Source: Sphyrna mokarran
Lineage: Eukaryota
Reading direction: 5' to 3'
Length of the DNA stretch: 64,000 bases
Assembly: GCA_024679065.1 (NCBI GenBank)
Contig: JAGIQG010000020.1
Location: 8,866,001-8,930,000, forward strand
The stretch's first letter is position 1. Every line of letters begins with the position of its first letter. The notes under the pieces are model-generated. The model was not told where the DNA came from and made no database searches. It saw nothing but the letters and a program-made list of their open reading frames with translations. Shown in pieces: positions 10,080 through 57,742 of this stretch. A program made the translations under genes and the position numbers.

Positions 10080-10402
10080 TCACATACAGCTGGATCTGGA
10101 GATGCTTGTTTGAAGCGGCTTTGCTTGAGTCTCGTGTTTGACCAGACAGGAGTAAAGCTCGTGTGAGTTCCAGTCTGAGGCTGACAGAGTCAGATAACTG
10201 CTCACACTGAACGTGTTGTCCGCCTCTTGCTGGACCCGACTGGTCTCAACCCCATTCCCTCTGACGCTGCCATCTACAGTCCATTCAATCTCCGCAGCTC
10301 CGGGGTTAAAACCGCTCACCAAACACACCAGGGTCGCCATGTTCTTGGCTGTGATTTGATCCGATGAAGGCGGAAGCACGGACACAGTGGGGCTCCGTGG
10401 AT
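10080..10402 (-). CDS. IGLC: Ig light chain cluster 1, constant exon (lambda-like C1-set domain)
   Basis: Acceptor cgtttcag|AT. Translates to PRSPTVSVLPPSSDQITAKNMATLVCLVSGFNP...W...YSCLVKHE...SRSSCM*, with a penultimate Cys for the H-L disulfide. 323 nt, in phase with VJ. Confidence 0.97.
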
Positions 10403-13255: not shown

Positions 13256-13576
13256 AATATGGAGCAAATTTCCGCCACAGCATTCAGGAAGATCCCAGTA
13301 AACCTAGTTTCACCCTCCCTCTGTCCTCGTTAAAACCGGGTGATACCATTTCATCTGAGAAAAGATTGTCCCGGACACGTTTAAAAGCCTAGATATTGCC
13401 TGCAAAATTGGTCACACTGACAAACGTTTGCATGGCATATGACACTGGGTCACCAGCTATGTCTAAATGTATTTATATGACAGTAGCCGTGATTTGCTAC
13501 AGTTCAATCTGTCAAGCCAATATGTTTAAAGTGTTTTTTTCAGCGTCCGCAGTAATGCGGTAAATAATTTACTTAC

Positions 13577-13906
13577 TGCCCAGGTTCAGCTTGGTTCCTC
13601 TTCCGAAGGTATTAGCTGCATAACAGTAATAATCGGCGGCGTCCTCCGATTGAACGTTGGTGATGGTTAAATGCATCTTGTTACTCGATGAGTCCACAGA
13701 CCCGGCGAATCGATCTGGAATACCCGAAGCCATACCAGAATACTCGGACCAAACAAGCACAGGGGCGCTGCGGGGTTTCTGCCAGTACCAGCTCGTGTAG
13801 TAGTCGCCAATGCTGTCTCCGGATAGGGTACAGGTGATCTTGACAGTCTTTCCCGGGGAAGTTGAAATGGATCCTGGCTGTGTCAGGACAATATCTCCGA
13901 TGGTAC
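13577..13906 (-). CDS. IGLV: Ig light chain cluster 1, germline-joined VJ exon (shark type II/NS3, lambda-like); CDR3 YAANT
   Basis: Acceptor tttcaccag|GT. Translates to DIVLTQPGS...TC...WYWQKP...DYYCYAANTFGRGTKLNLG, ending at donor A|GTAAGT. 330 nt, open. V runs directly into the J motif FGxG with no RSS. Confidence 0.96.
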
Positions 13907-14040: not shown

Positions 14041-14083
14041 TGTGGAAACAGAGCATTAATGCGACAAGAACTCGAACAGTCAT
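14041..14083 (-). CDS. IGL: Ig light chain cluster 1, leader exon (MTVRVLVALMLCFH + phase-1 A)
   Basis: ccttcaccATG start and a hydrophobic signal peptide. The donor A|GTAGGT splices in phase to the VJ exon (AGT = Ser, then TIG|DIVLTQ). Confidence 0.93.
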
Positions 14084-14151: not shown

Positions 14152-14279
14152 TTTTTATAAAGCGCTTCTTCAGAGGCTTCAACCTTGACAACGTCACTGA
14201 ATATTAAATATGTATGCAAATCCCCGTCATCTAAAGTGGGCAATAGGATTTCGTGCCCTGAGTTGACTGCTATTTGCAT
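14152..14279 (-). promoter_or_regulatory. Cluster 1 Ig promoter: TATA box plus two octamers in opposite orientation
   Basis: On the sense strand: TATAAAAA at 14152-14159, ATTTGCAT at 14214-14221 and ATGCAAAT at 14272-14279. Confidence 0.85.
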
Positions 14280-32150: not shown

Positions 32151-32473
32151 TCACATACAGCTGGATCTGGAGATGCTTGTTTGAAGCGGCTTTGCTTGAG
32201 TCTCGTGTTTGACCAGACAGGAGTAAAGCTCGTGTGAGTTCCACTCTGAGGCTGACAGAGTCAGGTAACTGCTCACACTGAACGTGTTGTCCGCCTCCTG
32301 CTGGATCCGACTGGTCTCAACCCCATTCCCTCTGACGCTGCCATCTACAGTCCATTCAATCTCCGCAGCTCCGGGATTAAAACCGCTCACCAAACACACC
32401 AGGGTCGCCATGTTCTCGGCTGTGATTTGATCCGGTGAAGGCGGAAGCACGGACACAGTGGGGCTCCGTGGAT
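32151..32473 (-). CDS. IGLC: Ig light chain cluster 2, constant exon
   Basis: Acceptor ttttcag|AT; PRSPTVSVLPPSPDQITAENMATLVC...SRSSCM*; 323 nt. Confidence 0.97.
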
Positions 32474-35650: not shown

Positions 35651-35992
35651 TGGCCAGATTCAGCTTGGTTCCTCTTCCGAAGGTGTATGTTCCGCTACTA
35701 GCTACACCACAGTAATAATTGGCGGCGTCCTCCGATTGAACGTTGGTGATGGTTAAATGCATCTTGTTACTCGATGAATCCACTGACCCGGCGAATCGAT
35801 CTGGAATACCCGAAGCCGTATCAGAAAACTCGTCCCAAACAAGCACAGGGGCGCTGCGGGGTTTCTGCCAGTACCAGCTCGCTGTGTAACTGCCAATGCT
35901 GCCTCCGGATAGGGTACAGGTGATCTTGACAGTCTTTCCCGGGGAAGTTGAAATGGATCCTGGCTGGGTCAGGGCAATATCTCCGATGGTAC
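35651..35992 (-). CDS. IGLV: Ig light chain cluster 2, germline-joined VJ exon; CDR3 GVASSGTYT
   Basis: 342-nt open exon DIALTQPGS...NYYCGVASSGTYTFGRGTKLNLA with canonical splice sites and no RSS. Confidence 0.96.
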
Positions 35993-36126
35993 CTGGTGAA
36001 ATAAGAATTGACCTATCAGGCTCTACAATTGTGAATATTGTTTGCAATTCAGCTCCGTTAAAGCCAACCATAGACAATAAGTGCAGTAAAAATAGCAACA
36101 AGAGAGAGAGTTAACGCAACACTTAC

Positions 36127-36169
36127 TGTGGAAACAGAGCATTAATGCGACAAGAACTCGAACAGTCAT
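36127..36169 (-). CDS. IGL: Ig light chain cluster 2, leader exon
   Basis: Same 43-nt leader MTVRVLVALMLCFH; donor A|GTAAGT. Confidence 0.93.
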
Positions 36170-36230
36170 GGTGAAGGTCCTAGTGAGGGTCAGACTGAAA
36201 TACTTCTTGACACAGGATGTTGCTGGACTT

Positions 36231-36351
36231 CTTATAAAGCTCTCCTTCAGAAGTTTCAACCTTGACAACGTCATTGAATATTAAATATGTATGCAAAACC
36301 CCGTCAAGTGGGCAATAGGATTTCTTGCCCTGAGTTGACTGCCATTTGCAT
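36231..36351 (-). promoter_or_regulatory. Cluster 2 promoter: TATAAG, imperfect proximal octamer, perfect distal octamer
   Basis: TATAAG at 36231-36236; TTTTGCAT (7/8 match) at 36291-36298; ATGCAAAT at 36344-36351. Confidence 0.8.
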
Positions 36352-39300
36352 AGGCTTATGTCAACTATTTTAGAGGAGGGATAACAAAATGTCAAAAAAT
36401 AGATTTCAAACCGTGAATAAATGAATACCAGACAAATGAAATGGCGGATAAAACATGAGTGACTGGGTGACCAGGGTAGGTGGGCTTTAGAAACGTGAGC
36501 AGGACGATAAAGCGGAAAAGCTGAAGGCAGTAAATTGATTTGTTACTATATCATTGTGCAGAAACTCGAATTCGAAAAGCAGAGTGCGAGTTGAGTTTGA
36601 GCAGAGCGAGAAATTAAAGAAATTGAGCAGTGTCCTTGTTGACAGCACATGACAGATAAATGAGCGGATGGACAGAGAGACAGAGCGATAGATAGATAGA
36701 GGGATGGACTGACGGGACGGAAAGAAAGAAAGAACAGACATGTCGGCAGAGGGGTAGAAAGACACATAGACAGACAGATAGGTATAGACAGAGAGAGTGA
36801 GATGGACAGACAGACAAAAAGGTAGACAGATAGAAAGAGAGAGAGAAGGTGAAGGGCAGACAGACAGTGAAGGATGGAAAATGCACTGGAATATTTGATG
36901 TTGATTGCACCTTGTGTTATTGGTGAACAGCCAGGCATGGAAAGCCTTGGTGAATTAAGTGCATTGAGAGAAATATGGACGATGAAATGAAGTTTTATTA
37001 ATCAGTCTGGGAGGGATACTTTCTGTCACACGAAACTGCGAATTTATTATGTCAACACTTTGAAGAATGAATGGTGAACGGTCAAATAAAGCAGACGTTC
37101 CTTAAAATTGTGATAGTTATCGAAGCTTCAAGATCAAGCATGGACTGCGGCCTGATCGTAGAAAATATTATACTAAATTCCATTTGTACCTAGTTTGAAA
37201 ATAGCGTCTAACATTCACAACAAATACATAAATATTCATAGAATCATAAAATCCCTGCAGAAGCCGGCCTTTCGGCATATCAAGCCTGCATCTACAACAA
37301 TCCTCCAGGTCCATAACCTCACCCATTTACTCCACCAATTCCTTGACAGGATAGGACAATTCAGCGTGGCCAATCCACTTAACCTGTATATCTCTTGATT
37401 GTGGAGGGAAACTGGAGCAACAGGAGGAATCCCATGTAGACACAGGAGATCTTCACACAGACAGTCACACAAGGCTGGATTTGAATCCGGCTCGCTGGAG
37501 CTGTGAGGCAGCAGCGCTAGAAATTGTGCCACTGTGTCACCCTTAAAAACTAACAATAAACTAATAATAGTTAGTGATGCGATAATCTTCTGATTTTCTC
37601 CAGATGAACGTCCGGCTGGGGACTGATTGATTTACTTAGCTGGGATACCTCGCGCGTGTATCAGACCAATGCTCTACGACGCTGGTTCAATTCCCGTTCT
37701 GGCTCCGGTGGACTCGGGACCTGCCATCTGCCCCTGCGCCTGAGAGTGAAGACAATGGCAAACTATCACTGACAAAACCTGCATGAAAACGGCTCAGACC
37801 AAAGCATCAGCAGACAGTGGGCCAAGGTCCTGCTTTCTGCAGACGCCATTTGGACAACTGAACAGGAGAGGTACCGGTGCATTAGGAAATAGCGAAATGT
37901 GCCAACCCTGTTCAGGAATAGGTGGAAGGAAATTTCTCATTTATATGGACGGGACAGTTGATAAATAAGGCTTCAGAAAGGCAGACATTCGAAGATAATT
38001 GAGTTTGTTGAAGTGAGGCAGCACGGGTTTGTGAAAAATCAAGTTGCTTTTGACTAACAAAATTACATTTTCTCAGTCAGCAGCAAAATGTTTGCTGAAG
38101 TAAATGCGTGCTGTTTATATAGATTTTAAGAAATCCTTTGGCAAAGTCCCACATAAAAGATTGTTTAACAACATTGATGATCATGGAATAGGAGGGTTAG
38201 TTTCACGTTCGACTTGTAATAAATGCCTTGACAGAAAAGAATAACTTGTACTCTTTTTTAAGAATGGGGGATGATAAATATTGGTATTTCCTAGCTGTCA
38301 GTGTTGAGAAAATTGGCCCGATATAAAACATCAAAGTACGGCAAACAGTGAGAATGATAACTATTCACTACAACAACGCATAGATAACATCAGGAATTCA
38401 CATAGTGAATGTAACAAGAGACAGATGAAATTTAATGCAGGTATTTGAGCTGGCGAATTTTGCCAGAGGGAATAGAGCGAGGGAATACATTTTTACGTTA
38501 ATTTCAGGAATGGGATGTGGACATCGTGGCCTCGGTCAGTATATATTCTTCAACCCTAATTAACCCTGAGAAGGGTATTTCTGTAGACATGATATACATT
38601 TGAATTCCAAAGTTCTAAATGCTGTGCAGGGCTAGGGGGCTGCGAGCATATTGAGAGATTCGTTGCTTTTTTTTTCATGGAATGTGAACATGAATGTCAA
38701 CGCCAGGATTTTTTGTCATAAGTTCACAAGAAAATAAGAACTGGGGACCAGGAATAAGCCATCTGGCTCCTCGGGCCTGCTCCGCCATTCAATAGGATCA
38801 TGGCTGATGTTTTCCGGACTCTATTCCACTTATCCGCTCACTCACCATCAACTATAATTCCTTTATGGTTTAAATTTTATCTGTCCTTACATTGAAGACA
38901 TTCATCCAGGCAGCTTTAACTGCTGCACTGGGCAGGGAATTTCACAGATTCAGACCCCTTTGGGTGAAGAAGTTCCGCCTCATCTCACTCCTAAATATTC
39001 TCCTCTGTATTTTGCGGTCATCTCCCTTAGTTCAAATGCCAGTGGAAACAACCTCCTTGCTTCTATTTTATCTATTCCTTTCATAGTCTTATATGTTTCT
39101 GTAAGATCTCTCCTCATTCTTCTGAATTCCAATAAGCAGAGTCCCAGGCTACTCAGTTTCTTCTCTCAACCTCTCAACTCCAAAATCAAACTCTTGAACC
39201 TCCACTGCACCCCCTCCAATGCCATTATATCTTATCTTAAGTAAGGAGACCAAAACTGTACACAGTCCTCCAGGTGTGGCTTCACAAGGACCTTATAGAG

Positions 39301-40006
39301 ATGCAGCATAACATCAATGTTTTTAAACTCCATGCCTTTAGCAATGAAGGACAAAATTCCATTTACCTTGTAATTACCTGCTGCACCCGCAAACCGACTT
39401 TTTGTGATTCATAAACAAGGACACCAGGTCCCTCTGCACAGCAGCCTGCTTCAAATTGTTGCCATTTAATTTATAGTCCATTTTGATGTTTTCCTATCAA
39501 AATGGATGACCTCATATTTACCAACATTCTACTCCATTTGCCAGAATCTTGCCCACTCACTAAGATTACCTATATCCCTTTGCAGATTTTCAGTGTCCTC
39601 TGCACACTTTGCGCTTCAATTCATCTTAGCGTCATATGCGAATTCTGGCGCACTGCAGTTGGTCCTCGTCTGAATAATTTGTAATAAATTGCTGTCCCAA
39701 CACTGATTCATGAGGCACCCCACTAGTCATTGATTGCGAAACAGAAAAACACCCATTTACCACGTCACCCCCCGCCCCCACCGCCGCCCCCACTTTGACT
39801 TCTGTTAGTTTATCAATCCTCTATCAATGCTAATACTTTACCCGTAACACCATTCAGTTTTATTCTACGCAGCAGCCTTTGGTGCGGCACCTTATCAAAT
39901 GCCTTCTGGATTTTTAAATTTTATTTATTATAGTTAGATGTATTAGCATACAGTGAAAGTGTTGATTTTGCGTGCTATACTGACATAGCGTTCCGTTCAT
40001 AGAGAA

Positions 40007-41469
40007 CATAGAACATTACAGCGCAGCACAGGCCCTTCGGCCCTCGATGTTGCGCCGACCAATGGAACCAATTTTATGACCCTCTATCCTAAACTATTCC
40101 AACGCTATCCATGTGCCTATCCACTGACCATTTGAACGCCCTTAAACTTGACGAGTCCACAACTGCTGCAGGCAGGGCATTCCACGCCCTTACTGCCCTC
40201 TGAGTAAAGAACTCACCTCTAACATCCGTCCTACAACTACCAACTCTTAATTTAAAGCTATGTCCCCTCGTGTTATACATCTCCATCCGTGGAAGAAGGC
40301 TCTCAGTATCCACCCTATCTAACTCTCTGATCATCTTATATGATTCAGTTAAGTCACCTCTAAGCCTTCTTCACTCTAATGATAATAACCTCAAGTCCTT
40401 TAGCCTTTCCTCATAAGACCTACCCATCATACCAGGCAACATCCTGGTAAACCTCCTCCGCACCTTTTCCAATACCTCCACACCCTCTTATAATGTGGCG
40501 ACCAAAACTGTACACAATACTCCAAGAGCGGCCGCACCAGAGTTTTGTCCAGTTGCAACATGACATCTTGGCTCCGAAATTCAATCCCTCTACCAATAAA
40601 TGCTAACACACTATACGCCTTCTTAACAAGCTTATCAACTTGAGTACCAACTTTCACGGATCTATGCACCTGTACACCGAGATCTCTCTGCTCATCTACA
40701 CTACTAAAAGTCCTACCATTAGCCCTATATTCTGCACACTTATTACTCTTACCAAAGTGAATCACCTCACACTTTTCCACATTAAACTCCATTTGCCACT
40801 TCTCGGCCCAGCTCTGCAACTTATCTATGTCCCTCTGCAAACTGTAACCTCCATCCTCACTGTCTACAACTCCTCCGACTTTGGTGTCGTCAGCAAATTT
40901 ACTAACCCATCCCTCTACACCCTCATCCAAGTCATTTATAAAAAGAACAAACAACAGTGGCCCCAAAACAGATCCCTGAGGTACACCACTAGTAACTAAA
41001 CTCCAAGTTGAATATATCCTATCAACCACCACCCTCTATCTTCTATCAGCTGGCCAATTCCTAATCCAATTTGCTAAATCACCCTCACTCCCATGCATCT
41101 GCATTTTCTGCAGTAGTCTTCCATGGGAAACCTTATCAAATGCTTTGCTAAAATCCATATACACCACATCAACTGCCCTACCCTTATCCACCTCTTTAGT
41201 CACCTTCTCAAAAAACTCGATGAGGTTTGTGAGGCACGACCTTCCCTTCACAAACCCATGTTGACTATCCCTCATCAATTCATTTCTTTCTAAATGACTA
41301 TAAATCCTATCCCTTATAATTCTTTCCAAAACTTTCCCCACAACAGATGTAAGGCTCACTGGCCTATAATTTTCAGGATGGTCTCTGTTTCCCTTCTTAA
41401 ACAAGGGGATAACATTTGCCATCCTCCAGTCTTCTGGCACTACACCTGTAACCAACGACGACATGAAAG
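40007..41469 (-). mobile_element. Young 5'-truncated CR1 LINE, unit-2-specific
   Basis: RT motifs NYRPVSLTSVVGKVLE, DFSKAFDKV, GVPQGSVLGPLLF and FADD with a stop/frameshifts; (TGTTCTA) tail; apparent TSD GAGAA (40002-40006 / 41470-41474); empty sites near 19850 and 61378. Confidence 0.93.
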
Positions 41470-43484
41470 GAGAAGGAAAGGAGATACTGCAGAATGTAAT
41501 ATTAGCCATAGATAATATAGAAAAAGATCAACTTAATGCAAGGTAGATCCATTCAAATGTCTAACGGCAGCACAGAAGAAGCTATTTTTGAGTCAGTTGT
41601 ACGTGACCTTAGATTTTTGTATCTTTTTGAAAACCCAGATACACTGCGTCCACAGGTCCCTCATTGTAATCTTCTCAAAGAATTTCAACAAATTAGTCAA
41701 ACGTGGCCTGCCACCCGCCCCCCACCCCCCCCACTCCCCGTTCATGAACCCAAGCTGTGTCTTCCCAATGCATGTTAAACTAACCGGCCTGTACTATCCA
41801 CCTTCTGTCTACCTCCTTTACCACTAGTGCATTTGCTAATCCCCCCGCCATCTTTTAGTGCCCTGGGATGCATTCCATCAGCCCCAGGAGATTCGTCTAC
41901 TTTTAGCCTCAATAGTTCAACACTCTTTCTTCGGTGACAATCATAGTTTCTAAGTCCTCACCAGCCATTGCATTCTTGTCATTAATTTTTGGCATGTTAT
42001 TTCTCACTGCCCGGAAAACCATGTGGAACCTTTTAGTATACAAACAGATGCCTTGAGTATTAAATCAGGGGAGTGTGCTGAAGCTTTATATAGATTTGGT
42101 TTGGACAAAACTAACGTACTGCGTCCAGTTCTGGTCACCAATCTTCCGGGAGGGCATGAAGATCCTTAAGAGGGTGCAGAGGAGATTTGCCAGGAACGTT
42201 CTAGAAAATTTAGGTACAAGGTTAAGTGGGAGACCTGGAGCAGTTCAGTTGGAAAAAGGGGGAACTTGACGGAAGTGCACAAGGATTGGCAGTTTTCATA
42301 AGATGGAGACAGAAAAGAGGTACCAATTTTCTGATGGTACAATGAACAGCAGACTCAGATTTAGGGATTTGGGCAAAAGGTACAGGGAATGTCTGAGGAA
42401 GACTTTTTTGTGATATGAACAGAGACTATCATTGATTTCAAAAGAAAATAAAATATGCACCTCATGGAAACACTCTTGCAGGGTTACGGAATAGAATGAG
42501 GGAATGCGAGTGGCTGTATTGCTCATTCGGAATCCGGATAGACTGCATGGGTCGAATAACCAAATCTGCTGTAATGATTGTATAACTATGATATTATAAT
42601 AGTTTATCACACAACCACTTGCGCCTATGAAGAATTGCGAGAAGTCACATTTTCATTCTCTGGTGGAAAGGCACAGAAAAGAACCAGAAATAATTGTACT
42701 TCCAGGCCTGACCGGTCTGGTCACGGATAGCATTTTGTTAATACAGTAATCGTGCAAGCATATAGTAGAGGGGGAGCCAATCTGATTACCTTCAGATGCC
42801 AATTCTAAGAAGTACCTGCAGAATTACGCTCACTGATCATAGCCTGATATAATTTCCATCTTGATGTATTTAGATAATATCCTGTTTCAGTTCTTATTGA
42901 ATCGTATTTCATCACTCAGTCTGCCATTGCAATGTAGATCTTAAAACCTTGCCTTGGATTACTACACCCGCCCCCTCCACGCCTTTCAGTTTCTATCAGA
43001 AATTACTTGAAATTTTTGGATTCGAGCTTTCTGCCTCTGGAAACAGTTTATTCCTATTTTCTCCATCAATTTCAGTCAAGAAGGTCTCAATCAAATCTCT
43101 GCTTAACCAGATCTGCTCCGAACAGAACATCCCAATTTTACCTAATCGCTTTGTTTTTCGCGCCTTCAAATGAATTAGTCGTCATGGCCCCCGTCTAAAT
43201 TAAATGTGCTCACAACATGAGGATATTGCATTCAGTTATTTTAATAATGCTTTAAAAAAACGGGTGTTCAGCTAAAAATACCAGTTTCTGCTCTTCAATG
43301 CCTGCCGTTGGAAACAGCAGACAACAGGACCATGGCGAAAGTAAACCAAGTAGAGAGAACCGCGTGGAGCGAGCAAACACAGGAGCATGGAGATAAAATA
43401 AGATTGGTGAGTGAACCGCAGCAGAGCCCAATCACAGGCGAAGCAGAACACAGCGGAAACACGAGACGAATCGAGAGAGAAGGT

Positions 43485-44791
43485 GAATCTATTTTCTAAC
43501 AACCAGGAAGGATTAGGGAAACAAAGTTACAAATACATTACAGAATGGCTTCATGTCACACGATCTGTAACCCCCATGACTTGCCTGGGTTAGCAAAAAA
43601 CCTCACTTATTGCGCTGGCTGGAGACAATACACATCTCTTTAACTTGTGCTCAGTGCTCCTTCCACTCACATTGTTAGCCACTTTAAGACTTGAATAGCA
43701 GGTCAGGTGGAAAGATTCGCATTCTAATCAGTAATCTGTAAAGAATCTGTGCTGTTGAGTGTGCTGTTTGAGACCAGAACACCTCATTAAGCAGAGCGAC
43801 TCTGCGATGTTCCCTGACCTGCTTACTCTTGAAAAGTGTGTCCTGGGCCGTTGCCCATCTGGAAAGATGGGCCAGTGATGGACACCGGGCGGAAGCTCTC
43901 TGCTTGCCCTTGGGCATTAAGTTTTTGGCGTTAGGCCAAACCAAAGCAACAAGAAATGGTAGCTGAGGGCAGTATAGGAAATATCAATGTTTTATGTGAA
44001 TAATTGTGGTGCATTTGAAGACCAATGTCAGGAAGTTAACGTTTTGATTAAATGTGATATAATGAAAGGCAGATGTTCCGTTTATTGATGAGATGTCGAT
44101 TAAGAGATTCCTATCACGTCTGCGCACCAAGAATATGTGGTGCAACACTGCCACCTACTGGTGCAATAACGTATGACACAAAGGTTATATAACCACCTAT
44201 TGGCGCAATATTATGTGACACAGAGGTGATATGACCTCTTGGAATCACCCCATTCGAAGTAAATCACTTGCTGCTTTTTTTGAATATATGACTTCAAAAT
44301 TGAGGTCTATCTGCAGAGGCCTAAAACCATATCTGACCAACGAACAATCTGCCCGAATGTAATCATCTGGCAGGCATAAATCGGTCATTTTCTGATTGTA
44401 AGAAGTCTGGCAACATCAGGCTTAAATCCAATCGATTTATTTGATAGTAAACTCACAAGCTTTCGACCCTCTGGTCTTCGTCAACTTAATGAGGTGCTTC
44501 GGTCTCAAACAGCACACAAAACAGCACAAACTGTTCACAGATTACTGATTAGAATACTAATCTTTACACCTAACCAGCTATTTAAGTCTTAAAGTGGCTA
44601 ACAATGTGAGTGGAAGGAGCACTGAGCACAAGTTAAGGAGATGTGTATTGTCTCCAGACAGCACAATAAGCGAGGTTTTTTGCTAACCCAGGCAAGTTAT
44701 GGGGGTAACAGATCGTGTGACATGAAGCCATTCTATAATGTATTTGTAATTTTGTTTCCCTAATACTTCCTGGCCGTTAGAAAATAGATTC
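43485..44791. repeat. Paralogous long inverted repeat in unit 2: arms 43485-43791 and 44485-44791
   Basis: Same arms and spacer as in unit 1. Confidence 0.9.
44148..44161 (-). promoter_or_regulatory. Candidate CTCF site (unit 2)
   Basis: Identical motif at the orthologous position. Confidence 0.6.
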
Positions 44792-47700
44792 TGTCCCTCA
44801 CCGGGTTGGGATATCTCCAATTGCCAGCGCTGTAAGATTATTCTTAACCTGTCTTTAATGTTTTACATTATATAATTACACATAGAAACCATTTAATGTA
44901 TATACACCAATTCCTCGCGAACAGGATAGCTGCCGACGCCAGAAATATTTTAATGGCACGGTTGAGAGGGTATGGAAATGCTAAATGAAAATCAATTGCA
45001 AAAAATGTGAGTGAATGCATTTGTGGAGAATAAACAAGGGAATATCAAACAGTTGGAATATATTGAGGGGTTGAGGGATGAGTGGTCTTGAAGCACATGT
45101 CCATAGGTTCTTAAACGTGCCAGAATCGGTGGACATGCTGATCAAGAAAGCATGTGGAACGTTACCCATTATTGGTGAAAGTATTCAGTACAAAATAGGG
45201 GTGAAATGATGGAACTGTATCAAATGCTGGTTTGGCCACAGTTTGAATCATTTTTCACTGCTCTGACCACGACGTTGCTGGAAAAGCAATTGTTTTGAAG
45301 ACACTTCAGAGAAAATATGAAGTAATGTTGCCAAGTGGGGAAAATTGCAGCTATGAGGACAGATTGCATTGGCGTGACTTGTTTTTTTTTAGAACAGATG
45401 AGGATAAAGGGTGAACTAATTGAGGCATACAAAATTATGACGGAACGTTACTGTTTAGACAGGAAATATCTGATTCCCTTAGCTGATCAATTACCAGAGC
45501 CATAGATTTATGCTGAATGGGAGAAAGATGACAGGGGACAAGCGGAATATGCCTTTCACTCAAAAGGTCATGGGTTACTAGAACTCGCTGTCCATTTTTG
45601 TGGTTGAGGCAGAAATGATCAACTCATTTTAAAAGTACCTGAACCTGCGTCTCAAGTGTTGTAACCTGCAGGGCCACAGACCATTGAGAAAATCTCAATG
45701 AGCGGCTCGTAACTTTTTTCTCTTTACTCTGGTGCAGATACGATGGGCTGAAAGGCCTATTTCTGCAGTGTTACCTTTTCTATGATTCTGTGGGCAAAAC
45801 ATAGGAGAAGTCTGCCGATTGCAAAATGTGTCCTTGAAATCAGTCCGGAAAGATAAAAGCAAAACAATACGGATGTTGGAAGCTCAAAAAAAAATCTCTG
45901 GGAAATCTCAGCACACCCTGAAGCATCTGTGGAGCGGGAATAGAACTGATGTTTCCATTCAGGATGACACTTCATCAGAGCTGAAGGCAAGGAAAATCTG
46001 ACCAGACTTTTAGTATGACGGCGAGGGGTAGGGGAGGGGAGAGAGAATGTGGAAAATAAAATAAGAATATAAAATGATAAAGAAAAGAAGAAATGATATA
46101 ATCTAAAGGGAGATGGAATGTAGGTGGAGGGAAGAATTTATGTTCTGAAGTTATTGAACACAATGTTCAATCTAGAAAGTTGTAAAGAGTTTGATCAGAA
46201 AATGAGTTGTTGTTCCTCCAGCTTATGGGGAATCGCAAAAAGCCAAGGAAAGTTAAATGGAGAATAGGGCCATATGTTTTTTTTTATTTATCTGTGAGTA
46301 TGGGTGGCGCTAGCTGGCTAGCATTTATTGTCCTGCCGCAGTTGCCCTTGAGAAAGTGGTGGTGAGCCGCCTTCTTGAATTGCTGCGGTCCGTGTGTGTG
46401 GAGTGAAATGGTAAACAAGAGCAATATCAAATACTGGAAACATATTGAGGGGCTGTTTATGGATCGACGGAAGTTGTTCTGAAAACCGTCTATGCTTGGT
46501 CTTTCCAATGTGGAGTTGATCGTATTGGGAGAAGCGAATGAAATAGATTTAAGGGAGTGCACGTGAAGCGTGGTTTCACCAGACCGGAGTGTTTGGGCAC
46601 TGAGATGGTGACCAGGGAGGAAGTGAAAAGGCAGATGTTGCACCTTCTACACACGAAGCTGCCATTGATGATGGATGAAGTGTTGCGTGCGACGGATGAG
46701 TGCACCAAGATGTCCCGAACAAAATGGTCCCAGGGTGGGGCTGTCGTCTGTGCAGACTAGATGGATCCAGTGGTCGCCTTCAGCACTGTAGGGATTCTGT
46801 AATTTCAAAAAGTTCAATGAAATAAAGGAAAGTTTTTGCAGTTGACATGCGCATAGATTACTACTCATCTCCGATAGATTGATATGAACTTTACGTATTA
46901 TGAATGCAAATACATTATTGCGAACCTAATGTTACTGTGGAAGAAACTAGCTCCGCAAAATGCAAAGCATTTCAATTACCCAATTAAAATCGTTTTATTA
47001 TTAAACAAAAACAGCTTATTAGACTTCGAGCAATAAGACTTGGAACAACCTGGTATATCTAGGGCTGGAATAGAGACACAAGGAGTGCAGTTGACTGGAT
47101 TCTCCAAATGCAGCAAGGTCAAAATCGAGATCAACGCTTCTCAATCCAGTGTCAGGATGAAAATATAGAGTGCTTGATTTTAGGTGAAGGCGTTGTTTCT
47201 CCACGCTCCCAACGCCTCCCACCCACGCCACAACTCTCCACCCCCCACCCCCCCACCCCCCTCCACAACACACGCACCCTTCCCCATTGCACCGGGTTCC
47301 CCGGCTCATTAAGTCTGCAGCGACAATGCTAGCAGTAGCCTGCATTGTTCCAGAGTGAGTCCTCCGCCCTCCCTCGGAGGGCTAATCTGATTAGCTGACA
47401 TCTCCATCAGCTCTGAAGTACCAAGAACGAACACTGCTGTGAGCTCTTTCCTCAGGAACAACAGTCGTGTGAACTCAGAATTCGGCCCTATATTTGGGAC
47501 AGTCCAGCTGGGACACCCTAGCGCAGTAAAGACTGACCTCGCCTTCCTGCTTTGCATTTGAAATCGTGGTGGAAAGGGAATAAGGCTCTTACGTTGCTAA
47601 TGAATGTCCTGTTAAGGGCTTCAATAGACCAAAGCGAGGAGGGAACGTCAGGCTGACTGACACCCGCGCAAACTCCGCACAGATAGTAACCCAAGCTGGG

Positions 47701-48990
47701 AATCGAACTCCGGGCTCTAGCGCTGTGAGGCAGCTGCGCTAACCGCTGTGTGACCGTGCTGCCCTAATTATGAACTAGGGATTGTGATCGAGCAAAGGGA
47801 TTTTTGTGTTTGTTCTTGATATGGCAGCGTCCCGGGCAAGACTAGCATTTAATGAATAATCTTTTCAAAAGACAATGATTAGCTGCTTCTTGTTGACCCT
47901 CTTAACTCCATGCCTTTTAGATACACCACAGTAAAGTTGGGAAGGAATTTTTCTGGAATTAACCAACAAGGAAAAATAAGCAGTGATTATAATTAAGGTG
48001 CGTTATTTGCATTATGGTAATGTTCCGAATGGGTTGTTTCCCTTTTGCACGTTTGGAAGCTGCAGTCGAAAGAAACGAGGCCACTTGTTGCTATACATTT
48101 TGGAGCACTTACATATTTCTGTCACTTCGTGCTGGCATTGGAGAATGTGAATATTCAAGGGCATTGATCGCGACCCAAACCAGCAAACTGCTTTATTCTG
48201 AATAACATCGAGATTCTTGATTGTTTCTGGAGTTGCATTGAACCAGGCAAGTAGAGGGTATGCTGTCATAATTCTGACTGATGACCATAAAAACATTGTC
48301 GATTGTCATAAAACTCCATCTGGTTCACTAATATCTTTTCGGGAAGGGAATCAGCTCCCACAGCAAGATCTCAATGAAAGTCCTCAGCAATGGAAATATG
48401 ACATAAACCTTCAATTTCAAAACTGGAGTCAAGCAGACGTGTATCATCACCCCCATCCTTTTCTCCATCACCACCATCGGTCACCTTGTCAAAAAAACAA
48501 GCTTTCCAGTGAAATTGACATAATCTCCAAGAAGGATGGAAATTTTGCAACCCCAACCGGTTGAAATTGAAGAAGAGAATGATGCTGACATTGTTTGTGG
48601 AACATCAGTGTGCGGATGAAATCACCATCTCTTCTCCACCTTCAGGCATTTAATGATAAGTGGGATTGATAACTAGGACATCTGTGCTGATACTATGATC
48701 CTCATGTACAAAGCAGTCATCTTCACAACTCTTCTGTGGCTCAGATTTCTGGACTACACAAATGTGCCACCTCAAGACCTTTGACTGGTACCATCAATGA
48801 TGTCTGAGATGAACGCTCCAAATCAACTGTAAAGACAGACATACTAACATCAGCGTCCTTGAACGAGCTAAGTGCATCAGCATCAAGGCCATGATCATCT
48901 GAATCCAACTCCACTCAGATGACCACGTGCTCAGCATGCCAGAGTCCTGATGGCCAAAGCAAATTTATTCTAGCGAGCTTAAGAAATGCA

Positions 48991-49516
48991 AACAAAGACA
49001 AAGAGCAACACAGCACGTGAAACAGGCCCTTCGGCCCAACGAGCCCACGCCGCCGTCCTAACGTCCTAATGACATATCCTTGTCTTTAGGCTATGCCTAT
49101 TGTTGAAGATTCCCATATAGGGACCAATATAGGGACAATTTGTTACCCAATCAGCCTAAGAGCACATTTTTAGGATGTGGGAGGAAACCGGAGCACCCGG
49201 AGGAAACCCACGCAACCACGGGGAGAACGCGCAAACTCCCGCAGACACAGGCCCAAATCCATGTGTCAGCACAGCAACAGCGATAGTCTCTGAGCTGTCA
49301 TGTCGCCCATCAGATGGTCCAGTTTAAGCATACACTGACGACGTGAAGCACTAGGCAACTCCTAAAGCAACCTCCAAGAGCAGCACGACATGCCGCATGC
49401 ATGCCCCTTGTTGGTCAACAAGGTGGACCGAATTGCCTGCGGAAACAAATAAGACTTAAATAAACATGCTAAAAAAAACTAAGACATTCCCGAGACGAAA
49501 CTAAAAGATAGTTTCT
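48991..49516 (-). mobile_element. Second, more truncated copy of the same chimeric element, inserted in the RTE fragment of unit 3
   Basis: Collinear with about 20715-21180; flanked by TGCA duplication (48987-48990 / 49517-49520); empty site AAGAAATGCACTTGAGC near 28162. Confidence 0.8.
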
Positions 49517-52500
49517 TGCACTTGAGCAAGACGAAGACAAATGAAGTTCTTCAAATACACCCTAAGTTTTACATGAAGAAATGTAACAGGGATGGAAAGG
49601 GAGCACAGATGTAAATGCCCGCCAGATCCTTGTTCAAAAGAGACCAACCTGAAGGAGCTTCGAGAACATTCCACAGCAAGATGAGATGCAGGAAAGGGAC
49701 CTGAGAAAGGAATGCCAGTGATTTCGAGACCAAGGAGCAATGCCACCTCCCAGAAATACCTGCCAGATGTGGGGTCGAAGATGTGACTCTAGGATTGTGT
49801 TCGTTAAACATGCAAAGATCCACAGTACTCATGACCATTGATGTGGTGTTTCTTAGGTGGAAAATCATAATTATTAACAAGCAATCACCAAAAAATTAAA
49901 AAATTCTGAAATTGTTTCCAGTTTACAAAAGTACCTCCGCCCTGCCTTCAGCCAGGGCTGGCATTCTTCCTTCATCTACACTGTCAATCACAGTATCAAT
50001 TTGATGTCTTCCGAAGAGATCACTTCTCAATCTCCTAAATTCTAAAAGATGCAGATCCAGATTCCTCAATTGCTCCTGTTAGGACGATGTTGCCATCTCA
50101 GGAGTCAGTATAATGAAGCATTATTGCACACTGTCTATGGCAAATCGATCCTGCCTTGCCGAAGGAGAACAAAACCGGATGCATTAGCCATGTGCGGTCT
50201 CGCCAAGCTTCCATACGATTGTGCAAGACTTTTTTAATCAACACTCAAATCCTCTTGCAGCTATGGCCAACATGCCATTTGCCTTCCGAATTGCTTGCTT
50301 CAACTGAACGTTAGTTTACAGTCATTTATGACCGAGGACATCCAGGTCCCTTTGGACATCAATTCTTCCCAATCTCTCACTCTTCAAGAAATACACTCAA
50401 TCTGGTTTTGCTACCAAAGTGAATAACTTTTCAATATTTCCACGTTATATTTCATCTACCATATCCTTGTTCAGTCACTTGGCTGGTTTTTGAGTCTCTT
50501 TGCATCCTTCTCACAACTCATTTTCTCATCTAAAGCAAACATGGAAATATTACATTTTGTTCACAAATCCAAGCCATGGATATTGATTGTAAAAATCTAG
50601 GACACAAACTCTGCTCTTTCTGGCAACCCTCTAATCACAATATGTCAACCTGAAGGTGAGCGTCTATTCCTATAGTTTTTTTGGAGTCTGATAACCACTT
50701 CCCAATCCATGCCAGAATATTACAGCTAAATCCAATATGCCTTTTTGCATTTACTAATCTTATGAGTGGGACCTCATATAAAAAGTCTTTCAAAATCCAA
50801 ATACACCACATCTAACAACTTCCCGTTACCTATTCTGCAAGATATAACTTCAGAAAAAAAAACCAACAGGCCTTTCAAACGTTTTTCTCTTTCTAAATCC
50901 GTGTCGGTTCTGCACAATTCGACCATTCTTCACGAAATGCACGTCAAGTTATTTGTCTACTACTTCGGTCAGGCTTAAAGGTCTGTGGTTATACTTTTTT
51001 CTCTCTCTCTCCTTTCTTAAATAGTGAAGGTATATTTGATAACTTAAAATTTGCACCAGAATTTATAGAATTTTGTAACCCATCAGCGCGGTGTAGTGGC
51101 GAGCATTGCAGCCACACGTTGCCAAGGATCAGGATTCGATTCCAGCCTTAGGTGACTGGCTGGGTGGAATGTGCATATTCTCCCCGTGTCGATGGGGGTT
51201 TTCTCCCACAGACCAAAGATGTGCAGTTAGGTGGATTGGCTACGCTAATATTGCCTTATAATGTAGGTTCGGGGGATTCGTGGGGTAACTACGTGGGATT
51301 ACGGGCTTTGAGCCTGGGTTAGCTGCTCTGTCAGAGGGTCGATGCAGACGCGATGGGCTGAACGATCTGTTTGAGCACCGAAAGGATTCTATGAAGTTAT
51401 GATTTTATTCTATGAACCCGCTATCCCCACAGCCACCTCTTTTGAACATGTGGTCCAAATAGTCTTTTGGTTCAAATGAATTTCATTTTAACAAATTCAT
51501 GTTTTCCTGATCGTGATTCGTAAGCCGCCCGGTAGTTTCTGCTTATTGTACCGCAACATGTAAACGGCAATGTGGAATGGCCCTGTTGTCGTAGGCGGCG
51601 CTGTTCTAACAGAGGATAGTGTGTAACAGCGATGCGGGTGCTCACTTACACCAATTTAAGATAAGGTTCGTTAACTTTAAACGCAGTAACCTGCTTAAAA
51701 TCAGGTTTTACTGACAAATCTCAGAAGGATAACGGAGGAGAGAGGATGCTGAGCGATTTCTAAATGTAAATATTAAAAAGTAATATAATATGCCTAAGGT
51801 TATATTCGTAAAAGTAAACAAAAATACAATGTATTTTAATGACCATGGATTAGATCTCTTGCTATCATTACCAGCACTTTGCTTGCTTGTTGTTGAAGGC
51901 ACGCCTTTCAATATATTGTTGCATAATATATTGCTGTAAAGTACATGCAGTAATTCTATTACGCAACAGAAGTTTTGTTCTTTTTCCAAATTGCAATGCC
52001 ATGTGTTTAAAAAGAATTATAAGAAGTTTTAATTTACTTGTGCATTTTAAAATAAATCTTGATTGGTCTAATATCTTCAGTTAGAAATAATGTAGGTTCT
52101 ACATGTCAAAACACTATGTTATTGGCGTGCCTTATTTATTGTCGGTGAAACATACTTGAAATATGACACTTCTAAGGTGGCTTCCTTTGGTCTTGTCGGT
52201 TCCTTCATTAACATCGGGCGCAGAATGATTGATTTTCATAATTGAAAACCATCACCTACATTGCTTATACTTTGTGTTTTTACTGGTCTTTGCAACTTGC
52301 AATTTTACTTGCACCAATATATTTATGGCAGTCCGAAATCAATCTACACAATAAAAGCAGTGTACTGAAGGGAAATATTGATTTGTGATTTGTGTGAATT
52401 TTAAAAAGAACGATTCTTGTCTAAATTCAAGTAAAATCTGAGAGTGCTCGAACAATTCAGCAGGTCTGTCAGCATCTATGAAGAGAGAAACATAGTTCAC

Positions 52501-53445
52501 GATACAACTCTATATGTCTCTTCTTCCCAAAATCATTTTGGAATAAGAGTCATATTGGGTTCGAAATGTTAAATGTTTCTCGCTCCAGATAAACTGGCAG
52601 GGCAGCCAAGTTTTTCAAGCACGCTATCCCTTTATTGGAGATTTCCAGCATCCACAATATGCTGAATACTCGCTTCAACTTAACTGAGCTGCTTTCGGTC
52701 TAAGACCTCACAGAACCTGAAAATTCGATTTGATTTTTTGATTTGATTTGATTTATTATTGGCACATGCATTGGTATACAGTGAAAACTATTGTTTCTTG
52801 CCCGCTGTACAGACAGAACATACCGTTCATAGAGAAGGAAACGAGACAGTGCAGAAAGTAGCTGTTACAGTTGTAGCTAGGGTGGAGCGAAAGATCAACT
52901 TAATGCAAGGTGGGTCTATTCAAAAGTCTGATGGCAGCAGCAAATGCTTCATAATATACCTTACCGATCAATTAAAATGATTGTGTATTTTTTATAACAG
53001 CATGGTGCCGGAATTCAAAAGAGGATATTAGATGTGGCATAAATTTGTGTAACCTGATAATTTAGAAACTCTTACATTAAGCGCTGCGAATTTTTGCCAG
53101 AAACATACACATCATGATCACCGTTACTCACACACTCTAACATTCAGTCAGACCTATCGGGAAAATTATGTTGCAAGATTACTTCCATATGTATGCATAT
53201 GATTGGTGTCATTGACTTTACATAAATGCAGAACGCAACAAAGACAAACTTCACGATTCCTCACAATTAGAAAGTTGCTAGGAATTTATTCCATGGAAAC
53301 AGATTGATAATAATCACAACGTTTGAGTTAATGGCAGTAATTTTATTGCACTGGGAGTATTTGCAACATTACATTTTAACAGTTCAGGGTGAACACATTA
53401 AATACAGATAGCGAGACCAAGTCAACAACCTGCCGATTGTGATGA

Positions 53446-53470
53446 TTTATTTAAAATGTGCCTCTTTATT
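53446..53470 (-). terminator. Cluster 3 polyadenylation signals
   Basis: Two AATAAA on the minus strand (53465-53470, 53446-53451). Confidence 0.7.
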
Positions 53471-53536
53471 GCAGTTGATATTTTGTGAAACAAACATTGC
53501 TACTAAGATAACAAATCAGCGCACAAAATCTTGGAA

Positions 53537-53859
53537 TCACATACAGCTGGATCTGGAGATGCTTGTTTGAAGCGGGTTTGCTTGAGTCTCGTGTTTAACC
53601 ACACAGGAGTAAAGCTCGTGTGAGTTCCAGTCTGAGGCTGACAGAGTCAGATAACTGCTCACACTGAACGTGTTGTCCGCCTCTTGCTGGACCCGACTGG
53701 TCTCAACCCCATTCCCTCTGACGCTGCCATCTACAGTCCATTCAATCTCCGCAGCTCCGGGGTTAAAACCGCTCACCAAACACACCAGGGTCGCCATGTT
53801 CTTGGCTGTGATTTGATCCGGTGAAGGCGGAAGCACCGACACAGAGGGGCTCCGTGGTT
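53537..53859 (-). CDS. IGLC: Ig light chain cluster 3, constant exon
   Basis: Acceptor ctcttcag|AA; PRSPSVSVLPPSPDQITAKNMATLVC...YSCVVKHETQANPLQTSISRSSCM*; 323 nt. Confidence 0.97.
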
Positions 53860-56800
53860 CTGAAGAGTGGATAAAAGAAATAAGATGCATTCTTAAATGA
53901 CAGAAAGAGTCAGAATCAATGTTTTGCATTGTTGAAACCTTTGAAGATTGCATGTCACTGTACAAAACTGCAGAGAAATTAATACAAGGAATCTTCATTA
54001 ATGTTAACTGCACAGCCGCTGTCTCGAATACTTTTGAACAATATATATTCTATTAAGATATCCCTAATTTTTCTACAAGACTAGAAACACGTGCAATATC
54101 TTAAGTAGAAATTGAATCTTAGCGAAAATGAAAGCATCGCAATGTAAAAAGCAAATGATCGGCATTCGGAGTAAATCTTGAAACAAAGTCGGGAGTAAAG
54201 ATTCCTCCCAATTAAACATATAACGTTTGATTCTCAACAGTGTACTGCTCGACAAACTATTAAGAACTTTCTAGTTGTCACTTCTTTACACAAAAATGTA
54301 ACATTGGGCTAATATCTGGAGTACTCTTCATTCACTGCCATGGCTGCTTTGCATCTTTGTAGCTTGCACCAGGTTTCTCACCAGTTCTCACAGCCATTTC
54401 CTCACTGCCCCAACTCTGGTCCGATTATAATGTGTAACCCTGCAGGAGACTGTTCCGTTACATTCCGAATAATTTATCGGGAACATCATTGGGCTACAGC
54501 GTCACAAGTGGAAACTTTTCAACAAGCAAAAAAAAAGTTTCCTACAAATAACGCTACTTATGTAACCAGTGATATCCAAGTCATATAATAATTATCAAAC
54601 AAGTCTCAGTGCACAAACAATGTAACCAATGTAACTTGGTCAATAATTTATATCTCAACCAATATCGCTTCAATCGATTAATTGCTGACTGAAGTTTGTG
54701 GGACTTTGTCCTGCCGAAATATGCTACCCCGTTTCTTACAAGCATGGCTGACGTGAAAACAAACTGCACAAAATACTAAAATAGGCTCTGATATCCTGAG
54801 GTCGTGATGGGCGCTATGCTAATGTAAGTTCTTTGCTTTTATTTTTAAGAGGGAATATTCCCATGATAGTAACAATGAATTTTTACCCGGGGTAAAATGA
54901 TTGAAGACAATGTCACAATCTGCTGCTTGTTTGACTAACCATTCACACCAGGCTGTACAAGAAGCAACTGCAATGCCCGACTCCCGGTATTTTTTAATTC
55001 AATGTAAAGCAAAGGAGAAAATGTTGAACCATTACTGCATTTACCCCAATTCTATAATTAGATGCCACATAAGCTATCCATTGCAGTCCAGAGAATTTCG
55101 CTTTGGGACATATAAGGTTGCCTTACATTTTTGACACAATAATTGGGAGACTGAACCGTGCAATCTGACAAGTGCATGTAACCCCGCCATTCGGAGTTTT
55201 ATAATATTCCAGAACTGAACTGAGCATCATAATATAAAAATATCCGAAATCCCATGGAATTATTGAGCAATCTTTGCTATCTGTGTGAATCTTTGCAAAA
55301 ATGCGTCGACACCAAGGACTGTATTATTGGAGGAATAACGGAACATATTAAATTTTCTATCTTATCCTTATCATCGTGATACCGCCGGTGGAAAAAAACA
55401 CAATGCGATGGAGTACGCGAATTTTCAGTAATACAAATCGTCTCAGGCTGATCACAGAACCAGGAGTAAGGTTCAATTGAGTTAATAAAAAAGCAGGTGC
55501 AACAATCTGAACGCCTGATGCGAGATACGCGCATGCAATTCATCAGGATGGAAGTTAATGGGTCAGTGACATGTTAAGGAAGTAGATGTAATTTCAGTTA
55601 CAGATGTTTGTTATTCAGTTATGCCGAAAATGGAAGAGCGCTGACAATTATCACTAACTAATGGCTCGTATTTTTATTCTATTCTGCGGTCGGGGGTGGG
55701 GGGAGGCGATGGTATGGATTGTTCAAAATCTTTTTAATTCTCCTCCGAACGTTTTCGCTGAGTTTGGAGACGAGATTGAGTTGCAACAAGTTATCACACA
55801 TTAACGTTACCAATCCGAGAATGGGGATTAATGTGCAGTATTATTCTAAGTGGAATGATTTTGCAATTTAACCTTTTTACTGGCGCTATCCATCTAAAAA
55901 AAATACTTAGAATCTTGGAATTCTGGGACACAGAATGAGGCCAAACGCATTCTTTGGAAAGAGCGCGTCCTGAGCCGATTTCCTACACATTTGTGTTTAT
56001 TTCTAGAATATTTCTCCATTTCGCCATTGTTCTGCTTGCCCTATTAATACAGGTAAGATGCAGGAGTGCGAACAGCCCCTTGGCCAAACAATATATCCTA
56101 TCGTGCCACTTTTGCTCTCTCGCAATGAAATTCAATTCGCAAGTTACCAACTGACCGGAAGGTGGAAATTTCAGCTTCCATCTCGCTGGTAAAATTCTTT
56201 TATTGCATTCTGGGTGTAGGTAGAGGTATGGAGTATTGAGAATCTTTTTTTTTTCTGAACGGTTTCACTCAGTTTGGAGACAAGATTGAGTTGCAGCAAA
56301 TTATCACATTAACGCTGCCAATCCGAGAAGGGGGATTAATGTGCAGAATTGCTCGAAGTGGAATGAACTTTTGATTTTGTAACTTAACCTTTTAACCAGC
56401 CCTATCCATCTCCAAAACTCTGTGGGATTCTTAAAATCTTGGAATTCTGGAACATACAATGAGGCCAAACGCCTTCTTTGAAAAGAGCGCGTCCTGAGTC
56501 AATTTCCGACATAATTGAGTTTCATTCTTAGAATATTTCTCCATGTTACCATGGTTCCGATCGCCTTATTAATACACATATAATGCGAACGGCCCCGATC
56601 AAAACAATCTATCCTATCCCATCCCTTCCGCCCTCTTTCAATGAGATTCATTTAATGTTCTCAGGCGATCGACTGGCCTGAAGGTGGAAATTTCAGCTTC
56701 CATCTCGCTGGAAGGATATGGAGCAAATTTCCGCCAGAGCATTCAGGAAGATCCCAGTAAACTTAGTTTCACCCTCTCTCTGTCCTAGTTAAAACCGGGT

Positions 56801-57041
56801 GGTATAGTTTCATCTAAGGAAAGATTGTCCCGGGCACGTTTAAAAACCGAGATATTCCTTGTAAAATTGGTCGCACTGGCTAACTTCTGAACGGCACATG
56901 ACATAGGATCACCAGCTCTCTCTAAATGTATTTATATGACAATAGCCGTGATTTGCTATAATTCAATCTGTCAAGCCAACATGTTTAAAGTGTTTTTTTT
57001 CCCCTAAGTGTCCGCAGTAAAGAGGTAAATAATTTACTTAC

Positions 57042-57383
57042 TTGCCAGATTCAGCTTGGTTCCTCTCCCGAAGGTGGATATTCCGCTACTCGCTACAGAA
57101 CAGTAATAATCGGCGGCGTCCTCCGATTGAACGTTGGTGATGGTTAAATGCATCATGTTACTCGATGAGTCCACTGACCCGGCGAATCGATCTGGAATAC
57201 CCGAAGCCATACCATCACTCTCGGACCAAACAAGCACAGGGGCGCTGCGGGGTTTCTGCCAGTACCAGCTCGTGTAGTAGCTGCCAATGCTGCCTCCGGA
57301 TAGGGTACAGGTGATCTTGACAGTCTTTCCCGGGGAAGTTGAAATGGATCCTGGCTGGTTCAGGACAATATCTCCGATGGTAC
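57042..57383 (-). CDS. IGLV: Ig light chain cluster 3, germline-joined VJ exon; CDR3 SVASSGIST
   Basis: Manual translation is fully open: DIVLNQPGSISTSPGKTVKITCTLSGGSIGSYYTSWYWQKPRSAPVLVWSESDGMASG...DYYCSVASSGISTFGRGTKLNLA. 342 nt. The ORF track shows only its 3' half because of a stop in the upstream intron. Confidence 0.96.
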
Positions 57384-57517: not shown

Positions 57518-57560
57518 TGTGGAAACAGAGCATTAATGCGACAAGAACTCGAACAGTCAT
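57518..57560 (-). CDS. IGL: Ig light chain cluster 3, leader exon
   Basis: Same 43-nt leader; donor A|GTAGGT. Confidence 0.93.
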
Positions 57561-57621: not shown

Positions 57622-57742
57622 CTTATAAAGCTCTCCTTCAGAAGTTTCAACCTTGACAACGTCATTGAATATTAAATATGTATGCAAAACCCCGTCAAGT
57701 GGGCAATAGGGTTTCTTGCCCTGAGTTGACTGCCATTTGCAT
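57622..57742 (-). promoter_or_regulatory. Cluster 3 promoter: TATAAG, imperfect proximal octamer, perfect distal octamer
   Basis: TATAAG at about 57622-57627; TTTTGCAT at 57682-57689; ATGCAAAT at 57735-57742. Confidence 0.8.

Follow-up and report, generated by a model that had tools for sequence, protein, structure and literature searches.

The window analysed here, a stretch of 64,000 nucleotides from the shark Sphyrna mokarran (assembly GCA_024679065.1, contig JAGIQG010000020.1, positions 8,866,001 to 8,930,000), contains three complete lambda light-chain clusters on the minus strand, spaced ~21-22 kb apart, whose variable (V) and joining (J) segments are fused in a single predicted VJ exon. 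The clusters are sequence mosaics in which exons are homogenised and introns diverged, and most of the contiguous blocks of differences between pairs of genes have one-step intermediates or represent old alleles. The differences in the complementarity-determining regions (CDRs) are best explained, with a probability of roughly 0.7, as ordinary point mutations that diversifying selection retained and that gene conversion and unequal crossing-over in the germline redistributed among the clusters; a small number of genuine multi-base mutations are probably present as well. Germline hypermutation is an unlikely source.

In the proposed course of events, purifying selection would keep framework and constant (C) exons alike enough for ectopic pairing in germ cells. 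Exchange there would regroup the modules of CDR2 and CDR3 and would also give rise to chimeric clusters, and selection would retain old CDR classes. Two genes that hold different old alleles thus differ at codon positions 1-2 and resemble tandem mutants.

Mosaic structure of the clusters

A search of the shark's own genome identified 12 related V exons inside ~225 kb, numbered c1 to c12 by position along the locus, three of which lie in the window (genes 1, 2 and 3 being c8, c9 and c10). The cluster c7 lies in inverted orientation and is divergent, and c12 carries frameshifts. Apart from c7, the clusters fall into two subfamilies, c1-c6 and c8-c12, whose introns and flanks differ by 38-58%, the introns being unalignable. 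Silent divergence between the subfamilies is low in framework region (FR) 2 (0.06), early FR3 (FR3a, 0.10) and the C exon (0.095), and high in FR1 (0.49), late FR3 (FR3b, 0.72) and J (0.45); the near-identical silent sites span CDR1-FR3 and the C exon. When only silent sites were used in a tract test, three of seven pairs passed p<0.05 with tracts at ~codons 26-89, the best being c1/c8 (1/44 inside vs 17/39 outside, p=0.003), with c5/c8 giving 2/45 inside vs 18/40 outside (p=0.007). Approximately unbiased (AU) tests on the core and on the CDR2 window both reject a detailed tree shaped like that of the introns (p=0.011 and 0.048), and site incompatibility is clustered along the exon (42 informative sites, p=0.00025; c7 was dropped from this test and from the 10-gene doublet fit, the tandem-share estimate and the simulations reported below).

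Two of the clusters, c4 and c5, are chimeric. They match c3 upstream (80/90 sites) and around CDR2 (12/17), and they match c6 in FR1-CDR1 (11/12), CDR3-J (20/21) and the J-C intron (68/75), the switch of parent falling inside the V exon. The duplicated units measure 18-19 kb, with 91-97% similarity over as much as 19 kb, and the pattern fits a birth of c4 and c5 by a presumed unequal crossover within the V exon. Their relative c6 is ~96-98% like c4/c5 downstream and 13% different upstream, with a CDR2 (YES-SRGPG) that is found in c2 and in many rays. At its CDR3-J end, c10 has GCG, ATA, TCC and GGG in common with its neighbour c11, two of these variants being silent; they are shared with c11, from which c10 is 16-17% diverged in introns, and not with the intron-sister c9.

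Homogenisation of the C exon extends further. A second germline-joined family, located ~0.9 Mb away (G000:C772, ~7.93-8.07 Mb), comprises seven V genes, one of them with stops, and its V sequences are ~50% identical to those of the window. The C exons in five of the seven fetched stretches of this family are nevertheless 90-94% identical to those of c4 and c10; the matches stop at the exon edges and the flanks do not align. Homogenisation templated by RNA is disfavoured, as the 3' untranslated DNA is not homogenised and the chimeras include kilobases of flank. Short-tract gene conversion among clusters, one of the two sources of variation that had been suggested in an initial annotation of the window, is supported by the silent tracts, the chimeras, the clustered incompatibility and the exon-limited homogenisation of C.

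Tandem differences in the CDRs

The other suggestion of the initial annotation, heritable hypermutation initiated by an enzyme of the activation-induced cytidine deaminase (AID) type, was drawn from the differences between c9 and c10. The count on which it was built is borne out: the two VJ exons, 342 nt each, differ at 25 sites, of which 18 are in the CDRs (16 replacement, two silent) and seven in the frameworks (four replacement, three silent). Twelve of the 18 CDR differences lie in blocks, the runs consisting of 13 singles, four doublets and one 4-mer with all blocks in CDRs, and FR2 is identical in c8, c9 and c10, as described. The confinement of blocks to CDRs holds for c9 vs c10 and fails for c8 vs c10, where two of five blocks are in framework (13882, 13579); both of these split into two single changes via the codon of c9. 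The excess of blocks over chance is modest: at least 12 blocked bases from 18 changes in 81 CDR bases have P=0.030 if sites are weighted uniformly, and P=0.019, 0.040 or 0.069 under other weightings.

The near-identity of c9 and c10 upstream, said to extend over kilobases, is real at ~37000-39000 (0-2% different per 250 nt) and limited to this patch, which may represent a recent homogenisation tract. In the J-C intron the two clusters are 5-13% different, and non-coding DNA overall has 495 differences in 10604 sites, 15% of the differences being in blocks vs 9% expected under independent changes. The V exon, 7.3% diverged, is not above its own intron, and c9 and c10 are therefore not very recent duplicates with runaway CDRs. 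Relative to the intron rate, their CDRs differ ~3x and their frameworks <0.5x.

Single-step intermediates, named in the initial annotation as evidence against germline hypermutation, are present among the paralogs for three of the five blocks. GAC vs TCC at codon 53 (codons are numbered within the exon) is bridged by TAC in c2 and c6 (TCC-TAC-GAC), TCT vs GAT at codon 57 by TAT in c4 and c12 (TCT-TAT-GAT), and GGT vs TCT at codon 96 in CDR3 by TGT in c2, c11 and c12. At codon 55, TTT and AGT are each one step from TAT (c8) or AGC (c2, c4, c11, c12). The TAY/AGY gap at this codon has no intermediate among the paralogs, and its alleles are old, both being found in both subfamilies. The fourth base (G) of the CDR1 block, ACAG vs TACA, is common to c5 and c12; the remaining TAC/ACA is private to c9 and has no intermediate, the only such block of the five. 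TACA/ACAG can be read as a shift by one base at a TAC hotspot, with a silent C-to-T change next to it at AGCT. The TAC-TAC repeat in CDR1 invites slippage, one TAC having been lost in c1 and c3, and this speaks against giving the shift much weight. Both states of 15 of the 25 c9/c10 differences are seen in other paralogs (for two of the 15 only via the distant c7); seven more are private to c9 and three to c10. A per-codon network of the paralogs contains 49 CDR links, namely 44 single changes, four doublets and one triple.

The CDR classes are also found outside this genome. Among 72 relatives, compared as proteins only and clustered at 90% (P0004 and P0005 were dropped), the D-, S-, Y- and H-classes of CDR2 turn up repeatedly in sharks and rays, as does the short class of CDR3; these proteins are not phylogenetically independent, and some derive from cDNA and may carry somatic mutation. 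CDR2 starts with D in 14 proteins (11 species) and with S in 14 others (8 species). Where it starts with D, the residue five columns further along is D/E/N in 9/14 proteins vs 4/58 of the others (compare DEF-SDT in c9), and the short CDR3 class of c8 occurs in 7 other species. All four combinations of D or S CDR2 with short or long CDR3 exist among c8, c9, c10, P0001 and P0016. Distance within species, divided by that between species, comes to 0.46 in C, 0.64-0.78 in the frameworks and 0.89-0.92 in the CDRs; for the CDRs, saturation or convergence could yield such values too. The divergent c7 (G000:C772:8854290-8857600, plus strand) has a longer CDR2, RDYDSSRPS; it seems to have partly escaped from homogenisation, because this class recurs in three other species (P0043, P0055, P0061).

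Weighing the alternatives

Several results weigh against a shuffling of selected point mutations between clusters. Four of the seven pairs fail the silent tract test, and neither a plain split into two subfamilies (p=0.19 and 0.53) nor the monophyly of c4-c6 (p=0.094 and 0.155) is rejected by the AU test. Donor tracts, which the initial annotation had proposed to look for, were recovered in part: c11 fits as donor of the CDR3-J end of c10, and the search of this assembly gave no exact donor for the DEF-SDT module of c9 and none for its TAC/ACA. A paralog that carries an intermediate is no proof that the intermediate was ancestral, and the CDR classes common to different species could be convergent. 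Lastly, in a codon model with three omega classes (relative branch lengths fixed, CDR3 codons 96-107 left out, the frameshifted c12 dropped from all codon analyses), an adjacent-doublet rate improves the fit (delta 0.26, p=0.012, 10 genes; c6 codons 55-58 masked here and in the tandem-share estimate), and the observed gain was reached by 0/21 doublet-free simulations with conversion and by 0/21 without.

The codon model also returned omega classes of 1.7 and 12, in support of the caveat, raised in the initial annotation, that positive selection could produce the doublets. Birth-and-death duplication with strong positive selection and little recombination, in which point changes follow one another at contact codons, is favoured by the omega 12 class, by the share of replacements among the CDR differences (16/18) and by the doublet links of the codon network, since all four two-base CDR gaps are at codon positions 1-2. 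It is also compatible with a block count that is near chance when sites are weighted by variability (P=0.069). As the whole explanation it is doubtful, however, as it gives no account of the silent identity that two subfamilies with saturated introns show in CDR1-FR3 and C, of the chimeric c4 and c5, or of the silent CDR3-J variants that c10 shares with c11 and not with c9.

A further alternative holds that heritable CDR tandems originate by AID-type hypermutation, in germ cells or in the early embryo, and are then spread by conversion. It can draw on the doublet term, which is significant with c7 included as well (delta 0.235, p=0.005, 11 genes), the control with non-adjacent positions 1-3 (p=0.44) and the C exon (delta 0) being null, and on the failure of the doublet-free simulations to reproduce the gain (0/42). 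It can also draw on the one-base shift of c9 at TAC beside the C-to-T change at AGCT, and on an AG/GA inversion of c8 at that same AGCT; shift and inversion forms have both been described for human hypermutation (PMC8781386), and RAG has been argued to be active in shark germ cells (PMC2193156). Against it stands the fragility of the doublet signal, which is gone without codon 36 (likelihood-ratio test statistic, LRT, 1.7) or without codons 36 and 53 (LRT 0.2); a triple-hit term brought no gain (LRT 1.1). The tandem share is estimated at 17% of mutated bases (~2-35%), 41% being rejected and 4% not, vs reported shares in shark somatic hypermutation, where hotspots are favoured, of 38% of framework and 51% of CDR changes (PMC5931798) and of up to nearly 60% (PMC8781386). 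Double-hit models are, moreover, reported to be favoured in 61% of ordinary alignments (PMC7954308). The small doublet excess rests on two codons and is below shark hypermutation levels.

An AID footprint was sought in the non-coding DNA of two trios of close paralogs, the hypermutation window being taken as promoter to 1 kb past J. Within this sample and with low power against rare events, no tandem excess was found in the hypermutation window (26/195, 13%, inside vs 257/1367, 19%, elsewhere) and no hotspot excess (27/206 vs 67/585, p=0.53). The enrichment at WRC/GYW that the initial annotation had proposed to look for is likewise not found, again with low power, silent V sites varying at 2/23 WRC vs 7/58 other positions; at CpG they vary at 9/32 positions, the ordinary methyl-CpG pattern. 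Hotspots did show an excess outside that window (p=0.0004); it was rejected as a sign of AID because SRC contexts mutate as much as WRC, which indicates a 5'-purine effect. As three footprint tests were negative and intermediates exist for three of the five blocks, a germline fixation of AID-type hypermutation lacks support and appears improbable. The narrower proposal, in which the TACA/ACAG shift and the AG/GA inversion would exemplify a small set of CDR variants made in germ cells as AID-initiated tandems and spread by inter-cluster conversion, deserves similarly little credence. Soma-to-germline proposals exist in the literature, and a literature search on AID expression in germ cells found no study of shark gonad among its three hits. 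If true, germline AID activity would be a major result, a heritable system of hypermutation plus shuffling in place of V(D)J diversity; the evidence for it here consists of two or three codons.

It is very improbable that the variants are somatic clones or assembly errors such as collapsed or chimeric repeats: in its favour are the similarity of the repeat units over up to 19 kb and the absence of the private changes of c9 from contigs of 4 public runs, perhaps from other individuals or species (contigs from 7 distinct runs were short pieces, none of which spanned an exon), but reading frames, splice sites and promoters of the window clusters are intact, proteins predicted from the genomes of other species contain motifs that match the differing residues, and private changes occur along the full length of each cluster, which a mis-join would not make.

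Locus features and known systems

Judged by their sequence, the window genes are lambda (type II) germline-joined immunoglobulin (Ig) light-chain clusters. Each consists of an octamer promoter and leader, the joined VJ exon and, ~3.2 kb 3' of it, a single C exon (Table 1). The VJ exons of c8, c9 and c10 are open over 330-342 nt and end in FGRGTKL followed by a GT donor; a heptamer scan found none inside them, V and J being fused without intervening signals. The closest named proteins are lambda chains of Carcharhinus plumbeus (sandbar shark), at 89%.

Table 1. Features of the three lambda clusters and their spacers, in window positions.
Feature	Position	Strand	Remarks
c8 leader exon	14041..14083	-	octamer 14272-14279, TATA-like element 14155-14162
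c8 germline-joined VJ exon	13577..13906	-	330 nt, short CDR3 class (YAANT)
c8 CDR1 AG/GA inversion at AGCT motif	near 13805	-	
c8 C-lambda exon	10080..10402	-	
c9 leader exon	36127..36169	-	octamer 36344-36351, TATA-like element 36232-36239
c9 germline-joined VJ exon	35651..35992	-	342 nt, CDR2 of DExxDTAS class
c9 CDR1 block ACAG vs TACA	35882..35885	-	
c9 CDR2, three doublets vs c10	35814..35834	-	35834-35833, 35828-35827, 35825-35824
c9 CDR3 doublet GGT vs TCT	35707..35708	-	
c9 C-lambda exon	32151..32473	-	
Upstream patch, c9 vs c10 0-2% different	37000..39000	no strand	
c10 leader exon	57518..57560	-	octamer 57735-57742, TATA-like element 57623-57630
c10 germline-joined VJ exon	57042..57383	-	342 nt, Pfam V-set
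c10 C-lambda exon	53537..53859	-	Pfam C1-set, homogenised with distant clusters
Inverted repeat pairs	22627-22937 + 23624-23934; 43485-43791 + 44481-44791		

The J-C introns each carry an old tandem duplication of ~520 bp whose copies are 76-77% alike (12244-13259, 34313-35330 and 55697-56711). Fragments of a LINE-type (long interspersed nuclear element) reverse transcriptase (Pfam RVT_1) are located in the two spacers in opposite orientation (17067-18424, plus strand; 40430-41527, minus strand), and each spacer contains a 311-bp inverted repeat pair (92-94%), ~690 bp apart, possibly a DNA transposon. Perfect octamer motifs occur additionally in the spacers at 26040, 46904 and 48005, without a V exon nearby. 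Outside the window, c12 (G000:C772 ~8956000-8959300) is a pseudogene with V-exon frameshifts and a shortened and shifted C exon. Just past the array and on the opposite strand (G000:C772 ~8979900-8986200), there is a V segment interrupted by a stop codon, together with a C exon whose type is more distant (71% DNA identity).

The sandbar shark lambda clusters described by Hohman et al. in 1993 and 1995 reportedly show CDR-focused diversity among joined clusters, and the 1995 work is said to have suggested homologous recombination between clusters, from clones without whole-locus flanks. The lambda clusters of cartilaginous fish (type II, NS3) are alike in having leader, joined VJ and C in each cluster, and the present ones do not differ from them in structure; the mapped mosaic tracts and the chimeric clusters are what is added here. 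Concerted or patchwork evolution of multigene families is known from motif shuffling in the major histocompatibility complex and from duplicated T-cell receptor and Ig constant genes. These families are alike in that conserved exons are homogenised and old binding-site motifs are swapped between paralogs. Unlike in those families, exchange here takes place inside a pre-joined VJ exon and brings CDR2 and CDR3 together in new pairings; this would stand in for the combinatorial step removed by joining.

All cartilaginous-fish lambda genes are reported to be germline-joined (PMC5192425, PMC4279169). CDR-focused replacement diversity in joined light-chain genes is already in print for the type I genes of skate, a different isotype, with CDR-centred differences and more replacements than silent changes; exchange tracts are not mapped in the abstract of that study (Anderson et al. 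1995, PMC2192082). Shark somatic hypermutation likewise produces contiguous differences of 2-4 bases concentrated in CDRs (Lee et al. 2002; PMC5931798). Its tandems, at the reported shares of 38-51%, fall in frameworks as well and favour AID hotspots, whereas the germline set described here has no bias to hotspots or to the hypermutation window (PMC5931798 for the somatic data). A literature search, with subscription journals outside its coverage, found no direct study of mapped germline conversion in shark Ig clusters.

Pre-joined lambda genes are without junctional and combinatorial diversity, and how a varied germline repertoire is kept up is a long-standing question of shark immunogenetics. 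When germline V genes are compared in pairs, their doublets look like shark hypermutation, which would mislead mutation calling in expressed transcripts. The locus offers mapped, testable evidence that new pairings of CDR2 with CDR3, and chimeric clusters, arise by recombination between clusters within the VJ exon, and that homogenisation of the C exon reaches over ~0.9 Mb.

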